From a virus, in the IMG/VR virus record IMGVR_UViG_3300021197_001769: a DNA stretch of 64,000 bases. One strand, 5' to 3'. This document shows positions 11,253 through 45,998 of this stretch, in pieces. Below the pieces are notes generated by a model. It was not told where the DNA came from and searched no databases. It saw nothing but the letters and a program-made list of their open reading frames with translations. The position numbers and the translations under genes were made by a program. The number at the start of each line of letters is the position of its first letter. The stretch's first letter is position 1.

Positions 11253-12488
11253 TTATCTCTGCCAACCTTTTACATAATCATCAGAGAAATTGAAGTGACT
11301 AAAAGCTAGTCTATCAACTAACTTTACTGCTTGATTATCTTTACCAATAGCTACGTATCCTTCTGGAGCTGTAGGAACAAACTCTCCATTTTTTTTAAGA
11401 ACAAATACTCTACTATCTAACAAAGATGTTAATTTTTTGATAATAAGTAATTTAGCTTCATTTACTGCTTTAACATATACAAATGAATTCTCGATAGGTT
11501 TCTTTATTTGACTAAGTTCGTCTAATAACTGCTTTAGAGCTGCTTTTTTAGTTTCTTTACTCTTATCAGTTTTAACTTTAGCTATAACTTTATCTTCCCA
11601 ATAACCTTTAACGTGAGCCATATACCCTGCATATGTAGGATTCATTCTACCAGCTCTAACTTCAGAATTTATATAAGTTTTAATGTGAGAACCTATAGCA
11701 GTACTTGGAATCATATCTAGTACCTTAACAATTTTATCAAAGTCTTTACTCATAGCTTTCTTTGACTTATCAATAAGCCCTTTTAACTCTCTTGACTCAC
11801 TGCTAGTTAAAGAAGCTGTACCTGATAAATTTTTAAAGAATGCATCATCTACCCATACAGATCTAGACTTTCTTAATCTAGATACATCAGCACCAAACGA
11901 TGCTTTATATGATTGTAAGTCTTTACTACCTTTGTAAGTTGTATGAAAAACAATACCCATATCAGCATTTCTAATAAGATTACCTATATCGCTCCCTGTA
12001 TCAAAAGCATAGACAAGGGTATTAGGATGAATAGTAATATACCTTCTTCCATCGATGGTTTCATATTTCTGCTCCCCTTTAGTAAACATCATATCGCCCT
12101 GTAAGACTGTACCTTTAGGTATGCCTATAGAACTTAGATGTTTAAGAGCATATTCTAGTTTAGTTGCTTTACCGGAAGGTTCATTATCTTTGATGTCTTT
12201 AATAGTTTTATATACTTTAGGAGTTTTATTGAATACTGATTTTGTACCTACAAAGAACTTTCCGTCTGCAGGATCAGTACCACAAAATAAAGCAGGAGCT
12301 CCATCCCATTTAACTGTAACGTTTTTAGCTCCTGATGCTCCTGATTGAAGAGTATCTAGTACATCTTGCAAAGATTGAATAGCAAATTCAGCACCTTTTG
12401 CACCTCTCTCATATAAATCTTCATCTGCATGAGTTAAATGTAAGTTCTGTTTTGAATCTGCTGCTTCAAATAATGCAAAGTTAATCAC
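11253..12488 (-). CDS. conserved T4-like protein (DUF6267-like) with ATP-dependent ligase motifs
   Basis: NLHLTH, TVKWDGAPA, VLQGD, PEGYV, VKLVDRL.FS. Confidence 0.7.
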   Translation of the reverse strand: MINFALFEAADSKQNLHLTHADEDLYERGAKGAEFAIQSLQDVLDTLQSGASGAKNVTVKWDGAPALFCGTDPADGKFFVGTKSVFNKTPKVYKTIKDIKDNEPSGKATKLEYALKHLSSIGIPKGTVLQGDMMFTKGEQKYETIDGRRYITIHPNTLVYAFDTGSDIGNLIRNADMGIVFHTTYKGSKDLQSYKASFGADVSRLRKSRSVWVDDAFFKNLSGTASLTSSESRELKGLIDKSKKAMSKDFDKIVKVLDMIPSTAIGSHIKTYINSEVRAGRMNPTYAGYMAHVKGYWEDKVIAKVKTDKSKETKKAALKQLLDELSQIKKPIENSFVYVKAVNEAKLLIIKKLTSLLDSRVFVLKKNGEFVPTAPEGYVAIGKDNQAVKLVDRLAFSHFNFSDDYVKGWQR

Positions 12489-12996
12489 TATCCTGTACCA
12501 ATCTGTTATTAACTGTATCCCAGTTAATTATATGCATATGCGTTTTTAAATATTGTTCTTTATTTATTCCATGAGTAAAGACATATGCATGTTCCCATAG
12601 ATCTATTAATAAAATAATATCTTTTACTATTCTATTATTAGGTATAATATTTACATAACCAGCATGATTCATCCACAACCATCCATTACCTTGAAGCCTT
12701 TCAGCTTGTTCAAGTATTGTAATATAAAAATTATTATGAGAGCCATATCTATTATTAATAATTTGCTCTATTTTACCATTCGGTTTATTTTGATCTCTAT
12801 ATTCTCTAATATTATCAAAATAGAGAGAATGAAGATGAGCACCAGCTTTATTAAAAGGAATATCACCTTTGCTCAAATTGAAATCATCAATATAAGTTTT
12901 ATAAACATGGTTAAAGTGTTGATCGAAACCCACTTCATTAATTGCAGGTTTAAGTTCACTTATGTTATAAGGAAATAGATTTTGTTCTAATATCAT
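12481..12996 (-). CDS. Fe/Mn superoxide dismutase
   Basis: LFPY...L.P, HFNH...Y, HLHSLYF, GNGW.W, DLWEHAY, INW. Confidence 0.85.
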   Translation of the reverse strand: MILEQNLFPYNISELKPAINEVGFDQHFNHVYKTYIDDFNLSKGDIPFNKAGAHLHSLYFDNIREYRDQNKPNGKIEQIINNRYGSHNNFYITILEQAERLQGNGWLWMNHAGYVNIIPNNRIVKDIILLIDLWEHAYVFTHGINKEQYLKTHMHIINWDTVNNRLVQDSD

Positions 12997-20661: not shown

Positions 20662-21072
20662 TTAGTTAATATTAATTACTTTAGGTTTTCTTTCTTCTGG
20701 AAGTTTAACTTCAAGATTAATGACAAGAATTCCATTAGTAATATCAGCACCTGTAACTTCGGTGTACTCAGACAGCCTATAAGATTTAGTAAACTTACGA
20801 GCTGAAATGCCCTTGTGGACATACATTTCCTGTGGTCTTCGACGTTCACGATTTCCTGTAATAGTTAATACGTGCTCTTTTACCTCAATCTTAATATCTT
20901 CTTTGCTAAATCCCGCTATTGCTAGCTCAACTAAGTGCTCTGTGGCGCTTAACTTCACTACATTGTGCGGTGGATATGTATCCTTAGCGTGTAAGCCGAT
21001 GTTATCGATCTCGTTTAAGAGATGGTCGAAACCTAAAAAAGCGTTCCTTGGGAACATAAAAGTACCAGTCAT
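20662..21072 (-). CDS. small heat-shock protein Hsp20 (IbpA-like)
   Basis: FLGFD, YPPHNVVK, ELAIAGF, HKGISARKF, A...NGIL; start chosen after GGAGG. Confidence 0.95.
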   Translation of the reverse strand: MTGTFMFPRNAFLGFDHLLNEIDNIGLHAKDTYPPHNVVKLSATEHLVELAIAGFSKEDIKIEVKEHVLTITGNRERRRPQEMYVHKGISARKFTKSYRLSEYTEVTGADITNGILVINLEVKLPEERKPKVININ

Positions 21073-21076
21073 ATTT

Positions 21077-21098
21077 GCCTCCATTTGTTATGCAAGAC
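21077..21098 (-). promoter_or_regulatory. ROSE-like RNA thermometer hairpin occluding the hsp20 SD
   Basis: GUCUU-G-CAU/AUG-GAGGC pairing with a bulged G opposite the GGAGG SD. Confidence 0.55.
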
Positions 21099-21405: not shown

Positions 21406-21430
21406 AACACTTCTTCCTTTTACAGTTAAA

Positions 21431-21482
21431 GTGCGTTGCTTCAGCAAAATAGCTTACTTCCGGGTATGGAAACCCCAACGAT
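21431..21482 (-). promoter_or_regulatory. glutamine riboswitch (glnA motif, class I)
   Basis: minus strand AUCGUUG-GGGU..ACCC-GGAAGUA-AGC..GCU-GAAG-CAACGC: P1 CGUUG/CAACG, E-loop AGUA/GAA, three-way junction. Confidence 0.88.
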
Positions 21483-21486
21483 AGTT

Positions 21487-21494
21487 TATTTATA
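21487..21494 (-). promoter_or_regulatory. T4-type late promoter driving the riboswitch leader
   Basis: exact TATAAATA ending 4 nt before the aptamer. Confidence 0.75.
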
Positions 21495-23178
21495 ATGTTA
21501 AGTTAACGTTCTTAGCCCAAGTTTTAAAGAAAGCTGAAGCGTAGAAAGTCTTTACTCCATCTGCTCTTTGCCAATCAACTAAGTTATCTATTTTATTATC
21601 TAATGGTTCTCTTATACGACTAACCATCTTATCTCTAAACTTCTGTTGAGTCTTTCTCCATTCATTATCTGGAATAGACCATCCTGTTTTAGGTTTGTTA
21701 ATAATATATTCAGGTAGAATACCTTTTAAACTATCTCTAGCTAAAAACTTATATTCACCATTAGCGTACTTATTAGGTTCTAAATTTTCCATTTTAATTA
21801 ATGAAGGTATACCCATCACGTACTTATAGAACTTTTGATTGAGTAAAGGAAATCTTCCTTCCATTCCAAAATATGAACCAAACTTATCATTTCTAGTTAA
21901 AAAGTCTTCTGATACTCTTGTAAGCATTTCTACAAACAAACAGTTGTTAAGGTGATCATCACCAAAAACGTTACCAGGAAACCAGCTTTCCATATAGTTG
22001 ACATAAGCTACTTCTCCCATTTCTAAACTTTGATCTAATACATTCATTCGTTTTTTAGGTTTCCACGCAATAGCTCTATAATGGTCCCTAAATGGATTAT
22101 CTGTATTATCATATCTACCATGAGTTATATAACCTGTATACATCTCATCTCCACCATCTCCAGAATAAGTAACAATAGTTCCTGCTTCTTTTAGAGCTCT
22201 ATTAATTGTAAAATAAGATGGAGTAGATTTATTGAATACAGGTTGCTCTAAAGCTAACATAGCTTCTTCTAAATCAGCATAATAATTTTCTGGAGTAATA
22301 TTAATATTACAATGATTAAAATTATATTCTTCAGCCATTTTTTGAGCCATATCAGCATCGTCATTAAAGTTAGCTGATTGAGGCTCATATCTTGATGTGA
22401 ATGTATTCTTTTCTTCTAGATAGTGAGCAACAGAAGTACTATCAAGACCACCAGAAAGAAAAACACCTCGCTGTCTAACACCAATATAACTTTTTCTAAT
22501 TGCTTCCTCAAGTTCATCTCTAAACTGTTCTTTACTAACATCTAAATCATTTATAAAATTATAATCATCCCATACATTAGTTGTTACTCTTTTTCTTGTT
22601 AAACAATCATATTCAATTATCTGCCCTGGAGTTAATTTAAAAGTTTCATCAATTAAAGTTAAGTAACCAGGAACATATCCAAATTGTCTATAAAGAGCAA
22701 AAGCAAAAAGATTTAATTTAGTTTCTTTTCTTTCTAATGCATGCATAGATGATGAAAATATCATACCTTTGTTAGTATTTCTATAAAATAAAGGTTTAAC
22801 TCCAAAATGGTCTCTTGCTATAATTAACTTACCATCTTTATAGAAAGCTAAAGCCCACATACCTTCTAATTTACTTAAAAACTTAGGACCTTCCTCATAT
22901 AATCCTTTAGCTACAGCATGAGTATCTATTTCATACTCAGGATAAAACTCTTTATGATTATAGATAGCACCATTGAATATTAGTGCGCTATCTTTATAAA
23001 GATAAGGTTGTAAAGATTGACCTATATCTCCATAGATAGCTAATAAGTTATGTCCGAAAGATACATGATGATTAGTCCAAGTAGAAGAACCATCAGGCCC
23101 TCTTCTCTTTGTATGCTCCATCATTCTATAAATTCTAGCTAACTGATTACCTTCAGTTATACCATTAATTCCGCACAT
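21490..23178 (-). CDS. asnB: asparagine synthase-like glutamine-dependent amidotransferase
   Basis: MCGING, RRGPDG, FNGAIYN, ARD.FGVKPL, LSGGLDS, SGDGGDE, E.RFPLL, PKTG. Confidence 0.92.
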   Translation of the reverse strand: MCGINGITEGNQLARIYRMMEHTKRRGPDGSSTWTNHHVSFGHNLLAIYGDIGQSLQPYLYKDSALIFNGAIYNHKEFYPEYEIDTHAVAKGLYEEGPKFLSKLEGMWALAFYKDGKLIIARDHFGVKPLFYRNTNKGMIFSSSMHALERKETKLNLFAFALYRQFGYVPGYLTLIDETFKLTPGQIIEYDCLTRKRVTTNVWDDYNFINDLDVSKEQFRDELEEAIRKSYIGVRQRGVFLSGGLDSTSVAHYLEEKNTFTSRYEPQSANFNDDADMAQKMAEEYNFNHCNINITPENYYADLEEAMLALEQPVFNKSTPSYFTINRALKEAGTIVTYSGDGGDEMYTGYITHGRYDNTDNPFRDHYRAIAWKPKKRMNVLDQSLEMGEVAYVNYMESWFPGNVFGDDHLNNCLFVEMLTRVSEDFLTRNDKFGSYFGMEGRFPLLNQKFYKYVMGIPSLIKMENLEPNKYANGEYKFLARDSLKGILPEYIINKPKTGWSIPDNEWRKTQQKFRDKMVSRIREPLDNKIDNLVDWQRADGVKTFYASAFFKTWAKNVNLTL

Positions 23179-24632
23179 TAAGAGCAAACCTTTACATTAT
23201 ATTTCTTTTCAAATCTTTTTGCATCTCTTTTTGTATTTACCATAGGTTCACCTCTAATATTAAGAGAGGTATTCAATAGCATAGGACATCCAGTTTCTTT
23301 ATACCATTCTTCTAATAGCATTCTAAAACCTGGACTATCATCTTTACCTACAGTTTGAACTCTACTAGAACCATCTACATGTATTATAGCTGGAAACTCA
23401 TCTGGTTTTTTACAATTACCTACAAATTGCATGAAAGGTGAGTCATCAGTTACAATATCAAAATATTCATTAACATGTTCTTTGAGAATAGCTGGAGCAA
23501 ATGGTCTAAACATTTGTCTTCTTTTAATATTGTTGACCGTATCTTTAATCTCATTACCTCTTGGGTCTGCTAGTAAGCTTCTATGTCCTAATGCTCTAGG
23601 ACCAAATTCAGCTCTTCCTGATGCTACACCTACAATCTTATTTTTCTTAAGTTCGTCTATAATATCATATACAGGGTATATTCCAGGAATCTTAGTTCCA
23701 AGATAAGGACCAGGCCATTTACAAAAGTCATCATAATGTGCTAAAGCAGCTCCTAATGAAGAACCACAATCTCCAGGATTAGGCATAATCCATACATGAT
23801 CAAAATAATCATATAATATTCTATTTGCTACACAGTTAAGAGCGACTCCACCCATAAAAACTACATTAGTTCTACCAGTAAGTATATTTGCTTTATGCAT
23901 TACTTCTGAAATAAACTCTTCTGTAACTACTTGAATACTACATGCTAGATCTTCTTTTTCAGCTAGAGGTAAATAATTACCAATACCTTGATGCACATTC
24001 ATTCTTAATTTTAGTTTTTTAATATCTACCAAATCTTCTTTTATTTGTTTAGTAAAAGTAGGCATGCCCCAACCAGCCATACCCATTGTAATATACTCTT
24101 CATCTAATGGTTTAAGTCCGACTCTCTTAGTAAATGCTGAATACAATAAACCTAAACTATGAGGTAATTTTCTACTCCATACTTTTTTAATATTGTGACC
24201 ATCCGCATCCCAAATTGTAATAGTTTCAAATTCACCAATAGCATCTATAACTACAATAGCAGCATCTCTAAATGGACTTGAATAATAACCTGCTGTTGCA
24301 TGAGTATAATGATGGTCAAATAATTGAACAGGAGCATCAATACCGAATGATTGCATATATGTTTCTGGATGAGTATCGAAAGGAGAGTATCTCCATTCAC
24401 CAGTTAATAGCTTTCTAATATTCTTTTTCCAAGGTTTTTCATACCATGCTACAGCATCAGGTTTACCAAACTTTAAGGCTTCCTTAATGATCTTATCATT
24501 AAGATGCTTATCATGCTTTATACCAGAATATCTTTCAGAGTGAGCTGCAAAAACAATCTCACCGTTTTTAATTACGCTTAGTCCAGCGTCATGGAAGTAT
24601 GCAGATACTCCCCAAATAATTTTATTTTCCAT
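23178..24632 (-). CDS. carbamoyltransferase (NodU/CmcH/TobZ family)
   Basis: HDAG, ERYS..KHD, HHYTHA, SLGLLYS, GGVALNC, GRAEFGPRALG.RS, RPFAP, LLNTSLN. Confidence 0.93.
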   Translation of the reverse strand: MENKIIWGVSAYFHDAGLSVIKNGEIVFAAHSERYSGIKHDKHLNDKIIKEALKFGKPDAVAWYEKPWKKNIRKLLTGEWRYSPFDTHPETYMQSFGIDAPVQLFDHHYTHATAGYYSSPFRDAAIVVIDAIGEFETITIWDADGHNIKKVWSRKLPHSLGLLYSAFTKRVGLKPLDEEYITMGMAGWGMPTFTKQIKEDLVDIKKLKLRMNVHQGIGNYLPLAEKEDLACSIQVVTEEFISEVMHKANILTGRTNVVFMGGVALNCVANRILYDYFDHVWIMPNPGDCGSSLGAALAHYDDFCKWPGPYLGTKIPGIYPVYDIIDELKKNKIVGVASGRAEFGPRALGHRSLLADPRGNEIKDTVNNIKRRQMFRPFAPAILKEHVNEYFDIVTDDSPFMQFVGNCKKPDEFPAIIHVDGSSRVQTVGKDDSPGFRMLLEEWYKETGCPMLLNTSLNIRGEPMVNTKRDAKRFEKKYNVKVCS

Positions 24633-24719
24633 TAGTGATATATAAATGGATCTTTAGATTTCATTTCTTTGATCTTCTTCTTCATCTCAAAATAAATTCT
24701 AATTTTTGTAATAATTTTT

Positions 24720-25385
24720 TTAAAGAAGTTTACCATTTTCTATGAACTCTAAGAGTCCCTCCGCCCATAATTTATGTCCATCATAAGATGGATGCTCATC
24801 AACTCCAGCTTCGAGTTGGTAGTTATTATCTCTACAAAAAGTTAAATGGTCTGTATCTTTTTTATATACTTTAGACCAATCTACCATTTCGTAGAGCAGT
24901 TGACTATCTCGAGTTCTAAGATCAAAAGTCTGTGGTAACCCGAAATACATAACATATTTAATACCGTTTAATTTAAAGTAATTCTGCAGATCTAGTATGT
25001 TATTACAAGTATCGAATGTATCATCCATTGTGTCATCATACTTTTTCTGCTTCATATAGAACTGGTACTCTTCATGCTTTACCCATGTCCTCCAAGGGGT
25101 ATCAAGGTCTAACCATCTGTCTAAACCTAATGCAGGGTAATCTTTTCTTCCTGGACCTGACCATTGAATAACAGCAAAAGCATTTTTCTTTCTCTCAGTA
25201 TCATATTCATAATACAATTTTGATGTAATAGCTATTCTTCTATTACCTCTTCCTCCTCTACCATATTGAGTAGATTCTAAGTTGTAATGATCAGCTACTA
25301 ATCTACTAGCAAAAGTATCTACTTTAGCGTTAGCAGTTTTTCTATTAGTACTGAACGAACATCCATTTGTAAATACATGGTTCAA
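24720..25385 (-). CDS. SGNH/GDSL-like hypothetical protein
   Basis: NGCSFS, G.GN, QWS, DEHPS..GH..WA. Confidence 0.55.
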   Translation of the reverse strand: MNHVFTNGCSFSTNRKTANAKVDTFASRLVADHYNLESTQYGRGGRGNRRIAITSKLYYEYDTERKKNAFAVIQWSGPGRKDYPALGLDRWLDLDTPWRTWVKHEEYQFYMKQKKYDDTMDDTFDTCNNILDLQNYFKLNGIKYVMYFGLPQTFDLRTRDSQLLYEMVDWSKVYKKDTDHLTFCRDNNYQLEAGVDEHPSYDGHKLWAEGLLEFIENGKLL

Positions 25386-25525
25386 CGTGAAGATCCTTGT
25401 GCTCTATATTTTTTAAAGCTTCTTCTTTTGTTTTTGTTCATCATTGCTACTGAAGGTTTACGTCCAATAGAGGTCTTCTTTGGATTTGAAATGTGTGTTG
25501 TTTGAGGTCTAAATCGCGTTGGCAT
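25382..25525 (-). CDS. small basic phage protein (not in the ORF track)
   Basis: MPTRFRPQ...KKTSIGRKPSVAMMNKNKRRSFKKYRAQG; AGGAG RBS. Confidence 0.55.
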   Translation of the reverse strand: MPTRFRPQTTHISNPKKTSIGRKPSVAMMNKNKRRSFKKYRAQGSSR

Positions 25526-25545
25526 AATATACTCCTAAAAAATTA

Positions 25546-25850
25546 ATGGCACTTCTGTTGCCAGGTAGTACCCACCCCGCTAATCGCTACTAAGTCGACT
25601 AGGCTGAAGCTGCAAGAGCTTCCTGCACAAGTGAGACACGCTCGACTTTTACAGGTAAGATTGAAGCAAAAGTAGTGCTTTTTTTAGCATTTACTTTAAT
25701 GTACGTATCTCTAAGAAAACTTTTCAACATACGTCGATCCTATTTCGCCCCCATAAGAAACACTCAACTATGCAAGTGTTTATGGTGGAGGCGCCGGGTA
25801 CCGCCCCCGGGTCCGTCCTATCTATTGCGAGATCCATCATCAAGCAACGT
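25546..25850 (-). ncRNA. ssrA: circularly permuted two-piece tmRNA, alphaproteobacterial type
   Basis: acceptor piece ends CCGGG-GGCGGUA-CCCGG-CGCCUCC-ACCA (CCA at 25785-25783); coding piece starts GGGGGCGAAAUAGGAUCGAC at 25752; G3:U pair; AACAGAA near the 3' end; tag ORF 25688-25599; outer ends approximate. Confidence 0.95.
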
Positions 25851-25856
25851 ACTAAA

Positions 25857-25864
25857 TATTTATA
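25857..25864 (-). promoter_or_regulatory. T4-type late promoter for tmRNA
   Basis: exact TATAAATA immediately upstream of the acceptor piece. Confidence 0.75.
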
Positions 25865-26217
25865 TGGGAAAAGCGAAAAAAGTTTTTAGAGTTTATGTAA
25901 CTTATTTTCCAGATGGAAGATATTACATAGGTTTCTCTCAAAAACCAGAAAAACAATATGTTAATTATTATGGTTCCTCTAAAGAAGTTTTAGAATACGA
26001 TAAAAGTTTACTTATAAAAGATACAATAGTAGTCTACACTGAAAAGAACAAAGCAAAGATGCAAGAGTTTCTTTTACAATGGTGGCATAGACATGATCCT
26101 AAGTGTATCAATGATATGTTGAATATAAGATTAAGATCTAAGTATCTTGATGGTTTTGTTCCGGTACATTGGAGTCCTCGTGACATTCGTCAGTTAGAAT
26201 TAGATTTCCATAATTAG
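25864..26217 (+). CDS. GIY-YIG-like endonuclease domain protein
   Basis: VYVTYFPDGRYYIGFS, YYGSS, QE, N.M; start trimmed to MGKAKK. Confidence 0.6.
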   Translation: MGKAKKVFRVYVTYFPDGRYYIGFSQKPEKQYVNYYGSSKEVLEYDKSLLIKDTIVVYTEKNKAKMQEFLLQWWHRHDPKCINDMLNIRLRSKYLDGFVPVHWSPRDIRQLELDFHN

Positions 26218-26294
26218 GCCATCCATAATCATCAGGTGATTCACCTATGTACCGCCATCTAACAACTCCAGTATCAGGATTTCTCTCGTAGATT

Positions 26295-26525
26295 TTAGGT
26301 CGATTCAACTAATAATCCTGGATTGTTTTCTAATTCTTTAATAGTTTCAAGCTTATCTCTAGCATCAGTCATCGAAGCAATAAGTTTATCCATCTCTTCA
26401 ACATGCTGAGGATGTTCTCCAATAGCAACTGGATTGTTAAGATATACTTGAATTGTAGCTTCAGCTTCTTTATACTGAGCTTCATACTTAGCTTTAAGAG
26501 CTCCTACAAATCGTTCTTTATACAT
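26295..26525 (-). CDS. conserved T4-like hypothetical protein
   Basis: A.I.VYL.NPVAIGEHP...EEMDK pattern. Confidence 0.7.
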   Translation of the reverse strand: MYKERFVGALKAKYEAQYKEAEATIQVYLNNPVAIGEHPQHVEEMDKLIASMTDARDKLETIKELENNPGLLVEST

Positions 26526-27379
26526 TATCTACCATCTCCTAACAAAGTAGTATAACCAGGTGTATCCTTAGTTATATTTCTAAATGCATCACTAGGTTCG
26601 TAAACCTGAATTTGCATTCCGTATCTATAAGTATCATCGACTTCATTAAATTTTTCAACTGCATGAAAGCACCAACGAGACTTAAAGAAAACAAATAATT
26701 GATTAGGCTTATATGACATTTGAGCTGCTTTAGTAAAACCATCAAAACCAAAATGTCTACCTCCGTAAGAGATATCTTTATCTTTAGCTTGCCATAAAGA
26801 AGTACCTAAATGCTCAAATCCTTCTTGTTTAGGAAATGAAAATATATTAGTAAAAACTCTATCTTCTCTATCTGTATGAGGTCCAATAAAATAATCTTTA
26901 TCATGTCTCTGTACAAACCATTCTTGTACTACACTATCTGACCATTTATTATCTTTCATTAATGGTCCAAATTGAGTAGCAAAATAAGTTTTAAAATGAT
27001 TTGCAATTGTATTTACATACCAATTATCTTTGATTAATACGTCATGAATAATCTGCCAAAACTGCACATCAGGCTGTGTTTTATCTGCTTTCACGATGTC
27101 ATAACAATCTACTTGTTTACGAATCTGATAGTGAGAGTTGTTCTTACTATGCTTTTGTAACCAAGGTTTAGATAAATGTGATTGAGTTATTAAAGGGTTA
27201 CACTCATGAAACCCTTCATAGATGCTTTTAGGCCAAATATTTTCTACCTGAAAATGTGGAAAAGGATATAACTCTACTTCCACATTCTCGATAGCAGCAC
27301 GCATATGCTTTCTTATTTTTTTTACATGATCTTCTGTATTCACGCAACGCTCCTTTTTTGATCCTCGCGGGCATGCCAC
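26525..27379 (-). CDS. 2OG-Fe(II) oxygenase
   Basis: PFPHF, IGPHTD (HxD), GTS, YKPN..FVF, HAV, distal R. Confidence 0.8.
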   Translation of the reverse strand: MACPRGSKKERCVNTEDHVKKIRKHMRAAIENVEVELYPFPHFQVENIWPKSIYEGFHECNPLITQSHLSKPWLQKHSKNNSHYQIRKQVDCYDIVKADKTQPDVQFWQIIHDVLIKDNWYVNTIANHFKTYFATQFGPLMKDNKWSDSVVQEWFVQRHDKDYFIGPHTDREDRVFTNIFSFPKQEGFEHLGTSLWQAKDKDISYGGRHFGFDGFTKAAQMSYKPNQLFVFFKSRWCFHAVEKFNEVDDTYRYGMQIQVYEPSDAFRNITKDTPGYTTLLGDGR

Positions 27380-45395: not shown

Positions 45396-45998
45396 TCAGC
45401 TATTGTTTTTTTCAGCATGTCTAACTCGTTCATGTACTACCTCATCAGCTAAATTATATTCTACAGCTTCTGCTGCTGTCATAAAGTTATCTCTATCCAT
45501 ATCTTTTTCAAGTTTTACAAAACTATGACCTGTATGTCTAACATAAATTTCAGTTAAAACTTTTTTCCATCGCTGCAGTTCTTTGAAAGCTATTTCTACT
45601 TCAGTAGCCTGTCCTGAAGCACCACCTAGAGGCTGATGAATCATATGTCTGCTATTTGTAGTTACTAATCTTTTAGCTCCTGCACAAGCAAGTAAAGAGC
45701 CCATCGAAGCTGCTTGACCAGTAACAATGGTAGTTATTGGAGACTGAATATACATCATAATATCATAGATAGCCATTCCAGCTACTACACTACCTCCAGG
45801 TGAATTTATATACATATTAATAGGTGCTTTAGGGTTTTGACTCTCTAACCATAACAAAGTAGCTACTATATGATTACTCATATTTTCTTCTACTACACCA
45901 TTTAAAAATAAAATTCTATCTTTAGCTAATCGAGTATAAACATCGTAAGCTTTTTCTCTTCCATCTTTTTCTGTTTCAATTACTGCTGGAAACGGCAT
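45396..45998 (-). CDS. clpP: ATP-dependent Clp protease proteolytic subunit
   Basis: YDVYTRL..DRILFL, YINSPGGSV, GQAASMGS (Ser), MIHQP (His), DRDNFM (Asp). Confidence 0.96.
   Translation of the reverse strand: MPFPAVIETEKDGREKAYDVYTRLAKDRILFLNGVVEENMSNHIVATLLWLESQNPKAPINMYINSPGGSVVAGMAIYDIMMYIQSPITTIVTGQAASMGSLLACAGAKRLVTTNSRHMIHQPLGGASGQATEVEIAFKELQRWKKVLTEIYVRHTGHSFVKLEKDMDRDNFMTAAEAVEYNLADEVVHERVRHAEKNNS

Follow-up and report, generated by a model that had tools for sequence, protein, structure and literature searches.

The window (the whole 64-kb stretch of DNA that was analyzed) contained a single permuted tmRNA gene, which ARAGORN placed at 25508-25875 on the minus strand with the encoded tag AKKSTTFASILPVKVERVSLVQEALAASA*. 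The Rfam alpha_tmRNA model (RF01849) matched 25542-25892 on the minus strand over its full length (model positions 1-355), with 119.1 bits (gathering score 50) and an E-value of 6.9e-32. The newer model tmRNA_permuted (RF04321) matched with 92.6 bits, compared with a threshold of 47. The features of the locus and the gene for a phage ClpP, which is considered further below, are as follows.

25857-25864, minus strand: T4-type late-promoter motif TATAAATA, about 6-7 nt upstream of the presumed precursor start
25783-25850, minus strand: acceptor piece, delimited by ARAGORN, Rfam, and sequence reading, with a putative 5' end
25810-25794, minus strand: T arm, with stem CCGGG/CCCGG and loop GGCGGUA
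25793-25787, minus strand: acceptor 3' strand CGCCUCC, followed by the discriminator A
25785-25783, minus strand: CCA that closes the acceptor piece
25753-25782, minus strand: spacer (intervening segment) of 30 nt, a hairpin presumably removed at maturation
25547-25752, minus strand: coding piece, delimited by Rfam, sequence reading, and relatives
25752-25746, minus strand: acceptor 5' strand GGGGGCG, which opens the coding piece, with G1 at 25752
25599-25688, minus strand: tag reading frame of 29 codons, on which ARAGORN and the CM alignment agree
25688-25686, minus strand: resume codon GCU, after GUAAAU
25601-25599, minus strand: tag stop TAG
25559-25553, minus strand: AACAGAA, in the loop of the terminal hairpin, after which comes a U run
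25537-25563, minus strand: terminal hairpin UGGCA-ACAGAAG-UGCCA, then UUAAUUUUUU, resembling an intrinsic terminator
25382-25525, minus strand: very basic ORF of 47 aa that follows the tmRNA terminator directly and has the ribosome-binding site AGGAG
45396-45998, minus strand: phage ClpP (PF00574, E 2.5e-69)

The gene has the permuted order, in which the CCA-ending acceptor piece lies 5' of the coding piece, whose start forms the 5' acceptor strand. The acceptor piece contains the 5' strand of helix P2, the T arm, the acceptor 3' strand, the discriminator A, and CCA. The coding piece runs from the acceptor 5' strand through the D-loop analogue AAAUAGGAUCGAC, a short pre-tag region, and the tag frame to the 3' hairpin that bears AACAGAA. 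The two acceptor strands form a 7-bp stem (GGGGGCG/CGCCUCC) in which the third pair is G3:U, the alanine identity, and the discriminator is A. A first-pass annotation, made by reading the sequence, had claimed the permuted order, the G3:U pair, the T-loop, AACAGAA, and the tag; all of these were found as described, with coordinates right within 1-2 bases, and the two programs that it named as a check, ARAGORN and the Rfam alpha_tmRNA search, both called a permuted tmRNA. The pre-tag stretch from P2 to the resume codon measured 44-45 nt, about 22 nt below that of canonical-tag phage tmRNAs, and the pseudoknot PK1 may therefore be reduced. Minimum-energy cofolds of the P2/PK1 region disagreed between variants.

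GC content was 30-35% throughout the window (33%), and the long ORFs all lay on the minus strand except for three short overlapping ones. The window harbored a T4-like replication module, including gp43 DNA polymerase, gp61 primase, a gp41-type helicase, gp44/62, gp45, regA, UvsX, and nrdA/nrdB, which bears out the earlier claim that the tmRNA is phage-encoded. Auxiliary genes encoded an Fe-SOD, Hsp20, GMP reductase, ClpP, an asparagine-synthetase-like protein, a NolO-like carbamoyltransferase, and a 7-deazaguanine cluster. The gp43 protein was about 41% identical to cyanophage gp43 and 42% identical to that of phage Melnitz. The source appears to be an uncultured, deep-branching marine T4-like myovirus; a 38-kb relative was rated 22% complete by CheckV, which implies a genome of roughly 170 kb. 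Judged from its sequence, the gene is a phage-encoded, circularly permuted two-piece tmRNA of the alphaproteobacterial type.

Relatives were gathered by an exact 26-mer of the tRNA-like domain (TLD), a neighboring protein, and a clade-specific 3' motif, and the same tmRNA gene was found at the same place in 11 further contigs from marine viromes and metagenomes (IMG/VR, JGI metagenomes, and TARA). All relatives had the gene order nrdA, nrdB, a 284-aa protein, the tmRNA, the 47-aa basic ORF, and an asnB-like gene. Their flanking proteins were 62-84% identical to those of the window, and their tmRNA copies scored 79-94 bits with Rfam. One of the relatives, L078, is the same phage type, with 96.1% identity over 9 kb, and showed zero differences from the window in 25476-26195, the 720 bp that hold the tmRNA. 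Over 24447-26945 (2.5 kb), the two differed at 9 positions (0.36%), compared with 3.9% overall. Strong constraint or a recombinational sweep in the recent past might explain the low divergence around the tmRNA. None of the genomes that represent 185,579 species of bacteria and archaea contained a clade-specific 28-mer. On present data, this tmRNA type is confined to phages. Searches of INPHARED with the tmRNA and the 12-kb region gave no DNA match, close or remote, apart from short matches to the TLD. An assignment of the host through the 28-mer or through ClpP was considered and rejected, as the 28-mer was missing from those representatives and the nearest bacterial ClpP copies were 57% identical, in a MAG whose other tmRNA-bearing contigs look phage-like.

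Integration often occurs at tmRNA genes, and phages acquire pieces of them (PMC9004378); the gene might therefore be a host ssrA copy that was taken up recently, perhaps at an att site, or is in decay, and that does nothing for the phage. However, it is complete and occupies a fixed locus in lytic-type T4-like genomes whose neighboring proteins differ by 18-38%, its RNA carries the compensatory changes described below, and its clade 28-mer is absent from the bacterial and archaeal representatives, all of which make such a passenger very improbable.

Six distinct sequences were aligned to assess selection on the RNA by covariation. Changes on both sides had occurred in two pairs of the T stem and in two of the acceptor stem (pairs 5 and 6), G3:U was invariant in all six sequences, and the base of the spacer hairpin and one pair of the terminator stem covaried. 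The spacer of the window was predicted to fold into an 8-bp hairpin (-6.5 kcal/mol), and the spacer together with the acceptor stem gave a fold of -21.1 kcal/mol (z -4.1). Among the relatives, the spacer was 30, 108, 122, or 178 nt long, and its flanks (CCA on one side and UAU/GAU-GGGG on the other) were fixed; L133 and L118 had almost identical coding pieces and spacers of 30 and 108 nt, respectively. A variable spacer between fixed flanks is as expected of an excised segment. The long spacers of L118, L121, L129, and Melnitz carried small ORFs with a GGAG-type ribosome-binding site.

L118:5658-5765, spacer ORF of 35 aa
L121:1209-1386, spacer ORF of 48 aa
L129:993-1114, spacer ORF of 32 aa
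L135:1077-1218 (Melnitz), spacer ORF of 54 aa

The L121 and L129 peptides had a common C-terminal ...H[ST]TKYEDLC, and those of L121 and Melnitz a common [VI]PKYL[QS]G. In the window, L130, and L133, the spacer is just the 30-nt hairpin without an ORF, which suggests that the spacer ORF is an optional insert in the hairpin loop.

None of the window ORFs scanned encoded ClpX, ClpA, or SmpB; for SmpB, the Pfam search covered 57 window ORFs (67 including the PHROGs scans), and two related records likewise yielded none. With no phage SmpB found, the RNA must use that of the host. This dependence is also what would be expected if the RNA mainly titrated host SmpB or competed with the host tmRNA, thereby damping host trans-translation, as proposed for the TLD-only RNA of mycobacteriophage DS6A; inhibition of tmRNA by a TLD-only molecule is a precedent (PMC4131195, PMC11915505). 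A decoy, however, needs no coding piece, whereas here the coding piece, the resume context, a frame under purifying selection, and its stop have all been kept, and a function of this kind is therefore improbable.

The motif TATAAATA upstream of the tmRNA occurred four times in the 64-kb window, compared with 16.6 copies expected from shuffles, and all four copies were on the coding strand. Three of them were located just upstream of uvsX, hsp20, and the tmRNA, and the fourth was at the end of asnB, upstream of a glutamine riboswitch. This riboswitch (RF01739, 42.9 bits; 21430-21494, minus strand) lies approximately 4 kb downstream of the tmRNA, directly behind the motif copy at 21487-21494, and belongs to a separate unit. 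Five of the six aligned sequences had the motif equally far from the tmRNA, and L129 had AATAAATA instead. The late-type promoter that the first-pass annotation had proposed is thus well supported as a sequence motif, being present at 25857-25864 and kept in relatives. No sigma-70 -35 element was found upstream of the motif in the window. In L118, a sigma-70-like TTGAAA-17-TATAAA overlapped the late motif, and in Melnitz TTGACA-17-TATAAA was combined with TATAAATA; expression might therefore not be confined to the late phase. Of the late factors, gp45 was present, and gp55 and gp33 were both missing from the 67 window ORFs scanned; a late transcription machinery is presumed from the T4-like character of the genes.

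The tag frame itself was compared across the clade, in which the following peptides were encoded.

Tag of the window, L078, and L131: AKKSTTFASILPVKVERVSLVQEALAASA
Tag of L130: GKKPSTFASILPMQVERVSLVEEALAASA
Tag of the L118 group and the L121 group: GKKPSTFASILPMQVERVSLVEEAMRASA (two nucleotide versions, one peptide)
Tag of L129: AKRKSTFASILSTKREVSSSSAQALAAIA

There were five distinct tag versions, the window's and four more, and each had exactly 29 codons; up to 46 of the 87 bases differed between versions, and the length remained constant. Pairwise dN/dS among the five variants was 0.15-0.46 in the tag frame. Each pair differed by 1-8 synonymous codons in this frame, compared with 0-1 in the other two frames, which carried stops in most variants. 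The resume codon and frame proposed from the window are accordingly the only ones that stay open and show synonymous change in the five variants, and no other frame gave a canonical tag, which the first-pass annotation had named as an outcome that would refute it. ARAGORN chose the same frame independently in L121, with the resume codon GGC. All five tags start with x-K-[KR]-x-[ST]-T-F-A-S-I-L and end with A-[SI]-A. Their first residues are AKK, GKK, or AKR and their last ASA or AIA, in departure from the canonical (A)ANDN...[LI]AA form. Three tag versions resume at GGC (Gly) instead of GCN. A small hairpin that encloses the resume codon covaries, with UGCU/AGCA in the window and AUGG/CCAU in L118, which is the probable reason why codon 1 varies between Ala and Gly and codon 4 between Ser and Pro. 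The ASA end would correspond to the loss of a stop after ALAA in the Rfam alignment, and to an Ala-to-Ser change inside LAA in the MAFFT alignment. The tag is a selected peptide that has lost both the AND(N/E) adaptor-binding start and the LAA end read by ClpX; conservation of its nucleotides could partly serve RNA helices.

Conventional translation of the frame as part of an ordinary small gene was also weighed, as the tag frame lies within a 43-codon ATG ORF (25599-25730) and is open upstream to the ATG in both the window and L118. In L121, however, the upstream extension contains in-frame stops, and the ATG falls inside the conserved P2/D-loop region with no ribosome-binding site before it, which leaves this explanation hardly credible.

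The frequency of such tags among phage tmRNAs was estimated from 116 IMG/VR stretches with an exact match to a 26-mer of the TLD, in which ARAGORN called 71 tags. Seventy of these were canonical, starting with AN[DE]N (or VAANDN or VAFNDN) and ending with AA, and the single exception was L078. The earlier description of the window's tag as non-canonical and longer than usual therefore holds, with its 29 residues and its ASA end, and the commonest tag length in a database of 97,179 tmRNA sequences is 10 residues (PMC11915505). Length alone is not unique: nine of the 116 loci encoded a 29-residue tag with canonical ends (e.g., ANDNALSNVTFVDFSAPVTAVNEDFALAA) and one a 24-residue tag. Among the loci compared, the change of both ends is limited to the window's clade.

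Phage-like contigs binned in the MAG 'Rickettsiales bacterium MED657' encoded the tags ANRKALGFADLTVGMSKMRLAA and ANKRALGFADLTLLLPSKTELRLAA. This MAG contained three alpha-type tmRNAs; the loci and contigs concerned are L179:1501-1895, L180:1460-1849, L181 (G012:C5), and L182 (G012:C3). The host-like one scored 185 bits and had the tag ANDNEMALAA at a local GC of 30%; the contigs of the other two had a GC of 36-37% and tags starting with ANRK or ANKR, and one of them had a phage-like nrdA-nrdB neighborhood with the tmRNA downstream. The 36-37% GC contigs are probably phage DNA binned with the bacterium, and would give a weak hint to the host. Like the window's gene, the long-tag tmRNAs of IMG/VR and one of the MED657 pair are located downstream of nrdA-nrdB in marine phage contigs. 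However, the tags of both groups, of 22-29 residues, have Asn at position 2 and retain the LAA end. The MED657 pair and the window's clade have in common a basic pair followed by F-A-[SD]-[IL]. Judged from five peptides, the first half of the tag, with its basic and hydrophobic residues, may have arisen earlier among phages, and the change of the end may be specific to the window's clade.

The loss of both ends raises the possibility that only ribosome recycling is needed during infection. The tag would then have drifted off the ClpX and SspB determinants, so that its products escape host ClpXP and no protease is loaded, and the conserved residues would serve the translation of the tag or the RNA structure. 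In favor of rescue without destruction, the AND(N/E) start and the LAA end are both lost, whereas 70 of 71 related phage tags keep them, and predicted helices overlap part of the tag. Furthermore, the residues read by SspB and ClpX have been mapped on the E. coli tag; ClpX depends critically on the final LAA, and variants such as DAS minimize its binding (PMC9382460). On the other hand, dN/dS well below 1 and the fixed 29 codons point to selection on the peptide, and the hydrophobic STFASIL block and the Ala-rich end resemble degron material. A tag needed for termination alone could also be very short, as 2-residue tags exist (PMC11915505). This explanation is thus considered unlikely, and a tag that still serves as a disposal signal, with altered specificity for its adaptor or protease, is preferred.

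The 47-aa ORF was kept beside the tmRNA across the whole clade, with 65-69% identity at the syntenic position, and matched phrog_17967 (E 4e-7). No Pfam family (E up to 10) and no named Atlas cluster was found for it. A faint likeness by eye to ribosomal protein L34 was discarded, since Pfam at E up to 10 and the Atlas gave nothing. The ORF could encode a partner that binds RNA or the ribosome. Just downstream of the tmRNA locus, 21490-24632 (minus strand) encoded an asparagine-synthetase-like amidotransferase (565 aa, phrog_16728) and the NolO-like carbamoyltransferase (484 aa). The carbamoyltransferase and a 221-aa DUF6071-like ORF were present in the window's subclade and missing at this place in the L118-type relatives. 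A set of quality-control and stress genes on the minus strand comprised ClpP (45396-45998), Hsp20 (20662-21084, behind TATAAATA), and an Fe/Mn superoxide dismutase (12481-12996).

The phage ClpP that the first-pass annotation had mentioned is present, and its AASMG, IHQP, and DRD motifs align with the Ser-His-Asp triad of solved ClpP structures, so that the triad is intact. The gene recurred in the record of L118. It was also found in complete or large records of canonical-tag phages (G008 and G011), and Melnitz is without it; a specific tie between ClpP and the odd tag was therefore rejected. ClpP itself does not read tags. Taken together, its presence in canonical-tag phages, its absence from Melnitz, and its lack of tag reading mean that ClpP does not point to a special pathway.

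The proposed mechanism would begin with a single precursor transcribed from the TATAAATA late-type promoter. From T4 biology, the RNA would be expected to be made in quantity during infection, when host transcription is off and mRNA turnover yields non-stop messages. The stem-closed spacer would be cut out by tRNA-processing enzymes of the host, including RNase P, leaving an acceptor piece of approximately 68 nt that ends in CCA and a coding piece of approximately 205 nt, joined by the acceptor stem and P2. Host AlaRS would charge the molecule via G3:U, and host SmpB and EF-Tu would deliver it to ribosomes stalled on broken mRNAs. Translation would resume at GCU (25688), alanine and the 29-residue tag would be added, and the ribosome would be freed after the stop at TAG. 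We give a probability of roughly 0.65 to the whole chain, that is, to a working trans-translation RNA whose tag is a disposal signal with altered adaptor or protease specificity. The reprogramming of trans-translation by the phage, as the first-pass annotation had suggested, is plausible as a hypothesis; its idea that the RNA stands in for host tmRNA cut by defense nucleases drew no support from these data. A bolder version, in which K-[KR]-x-[ST]-T-F-A-S-I-L docks a phage-specific or non-ClpX adaptor or protease and A-[SI]-A avoids ClpX and SspB, is put forward tentatively and seems rather doubtful at present; the protease of such a private disposal channel might possibly be built around the phage ClpP. 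If it were true, trans-translation in the infected cell would be uncoupled from the quality-control network of the host, and the motif of basic residues plus FA[SD][IL], which recurs in another phage lineage, would be the signature of a class of degrons particular to phages.

To our knowledge, tmRNA tags are among the most uniform peptide signals of bacteria, and the ClpX-read end and the SspB-read start are nearly universal in Proteobacteria and in the tmRNAs of most of their phages. A lineage in which both ends of the tag have been rewritten, yet the new peptide remains under purifying selection, offers a natural experiment on the role of the tag during infection, and addresses the question of ribosome recycling alone versus disposal through another protease. 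A further orthogonal degron could be gained from it, as one was from the tag of Mesoplasma.

The canonical alphaproteobacterial two-piece tmRNA (RF01849) was reportedly described from the ssrA of Caulobacter by Keiler, Shapiro and Williams in 2000. The window's gene resembles it in gene order, G3:U, ACCA, the GGCGGUA T-loop, the GGAUCGAC D-loop analogue, the resume context, and the terminal hairpin with AACAGAA. In contrast, the window's gene is phage-borne, lacks ANDN...LAA, and has a pre-tag region that is about 22 nt shorter. Tags of Mollicutes such as that of Mesoplasma florum (mf-ssrA) are long, end in NYAFA, and are read by Lon (PMC9382460). The mf-ssrA tag, like the window's, is long and without the LAA end, and it is a known degron for a different protease. 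It differs in belonging to a one-piece tmRNA, in its unrelated sequence, and in occurring in organisms without ClpXP. By analogy, mf-ssrA would be the best precedent for a long, odd tag that means a changed protease.

Among phages, earlier tmRNA surveys gave only the tmRNAs of mycobacteriophages and Bacillus phage G as cases (PMC4131195). The two-piece alpha-type ssrA of the Methylophilales phage Melnitz was then described by Buchholz et al. (2022), who reported 53 two-piece tmRNAs in phage genomes, mostly marine, and 17 among 47 Melnitz-like contigs, and who offered the same functional guesses for the phage tmRNA (PMC9004378). The novelty first claimed for the window's gene was therefore too strong, given this publication and the 29-residue tags of other phages; together with that survey, the gene is one more sign that many marine phages carry a trans-translation RNA of their own. 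The text and supplements examined for that paper (PMC9004378) contained no tag-peptide analysis, and full-text literature searches found no description of the window's tag. Melnitz and the pelagimyophage-like marine myophages resemble the window's phage as T4-like marine myophages with a permuted tmRNA of the alphaproteobacterial type. Melnitz also has TATAAATA directly upstream of the gene, a stem-closed spacer, and a glutamine riboswitch in its genome, and no SmpB of its own was found. However, the riboswitch is said to adjoin ssrA in Melnitz and is 4 kb from the tmRNA in the window, and the tmRNA locus is next to gp33 in Melnitz and between nrdB and asnB in the window's clade. The tag of Melnitz is canonical (ANDNYVPVDYALAA), whereas that of the window's clade has 29 residues, a K-[KR] start, and an A-[SI]-A end. 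Thus, the two-piece alpha-type tmRNA of phages was already known, and what is new is a conserved 29-residue tag without either of the usual hallmarks.
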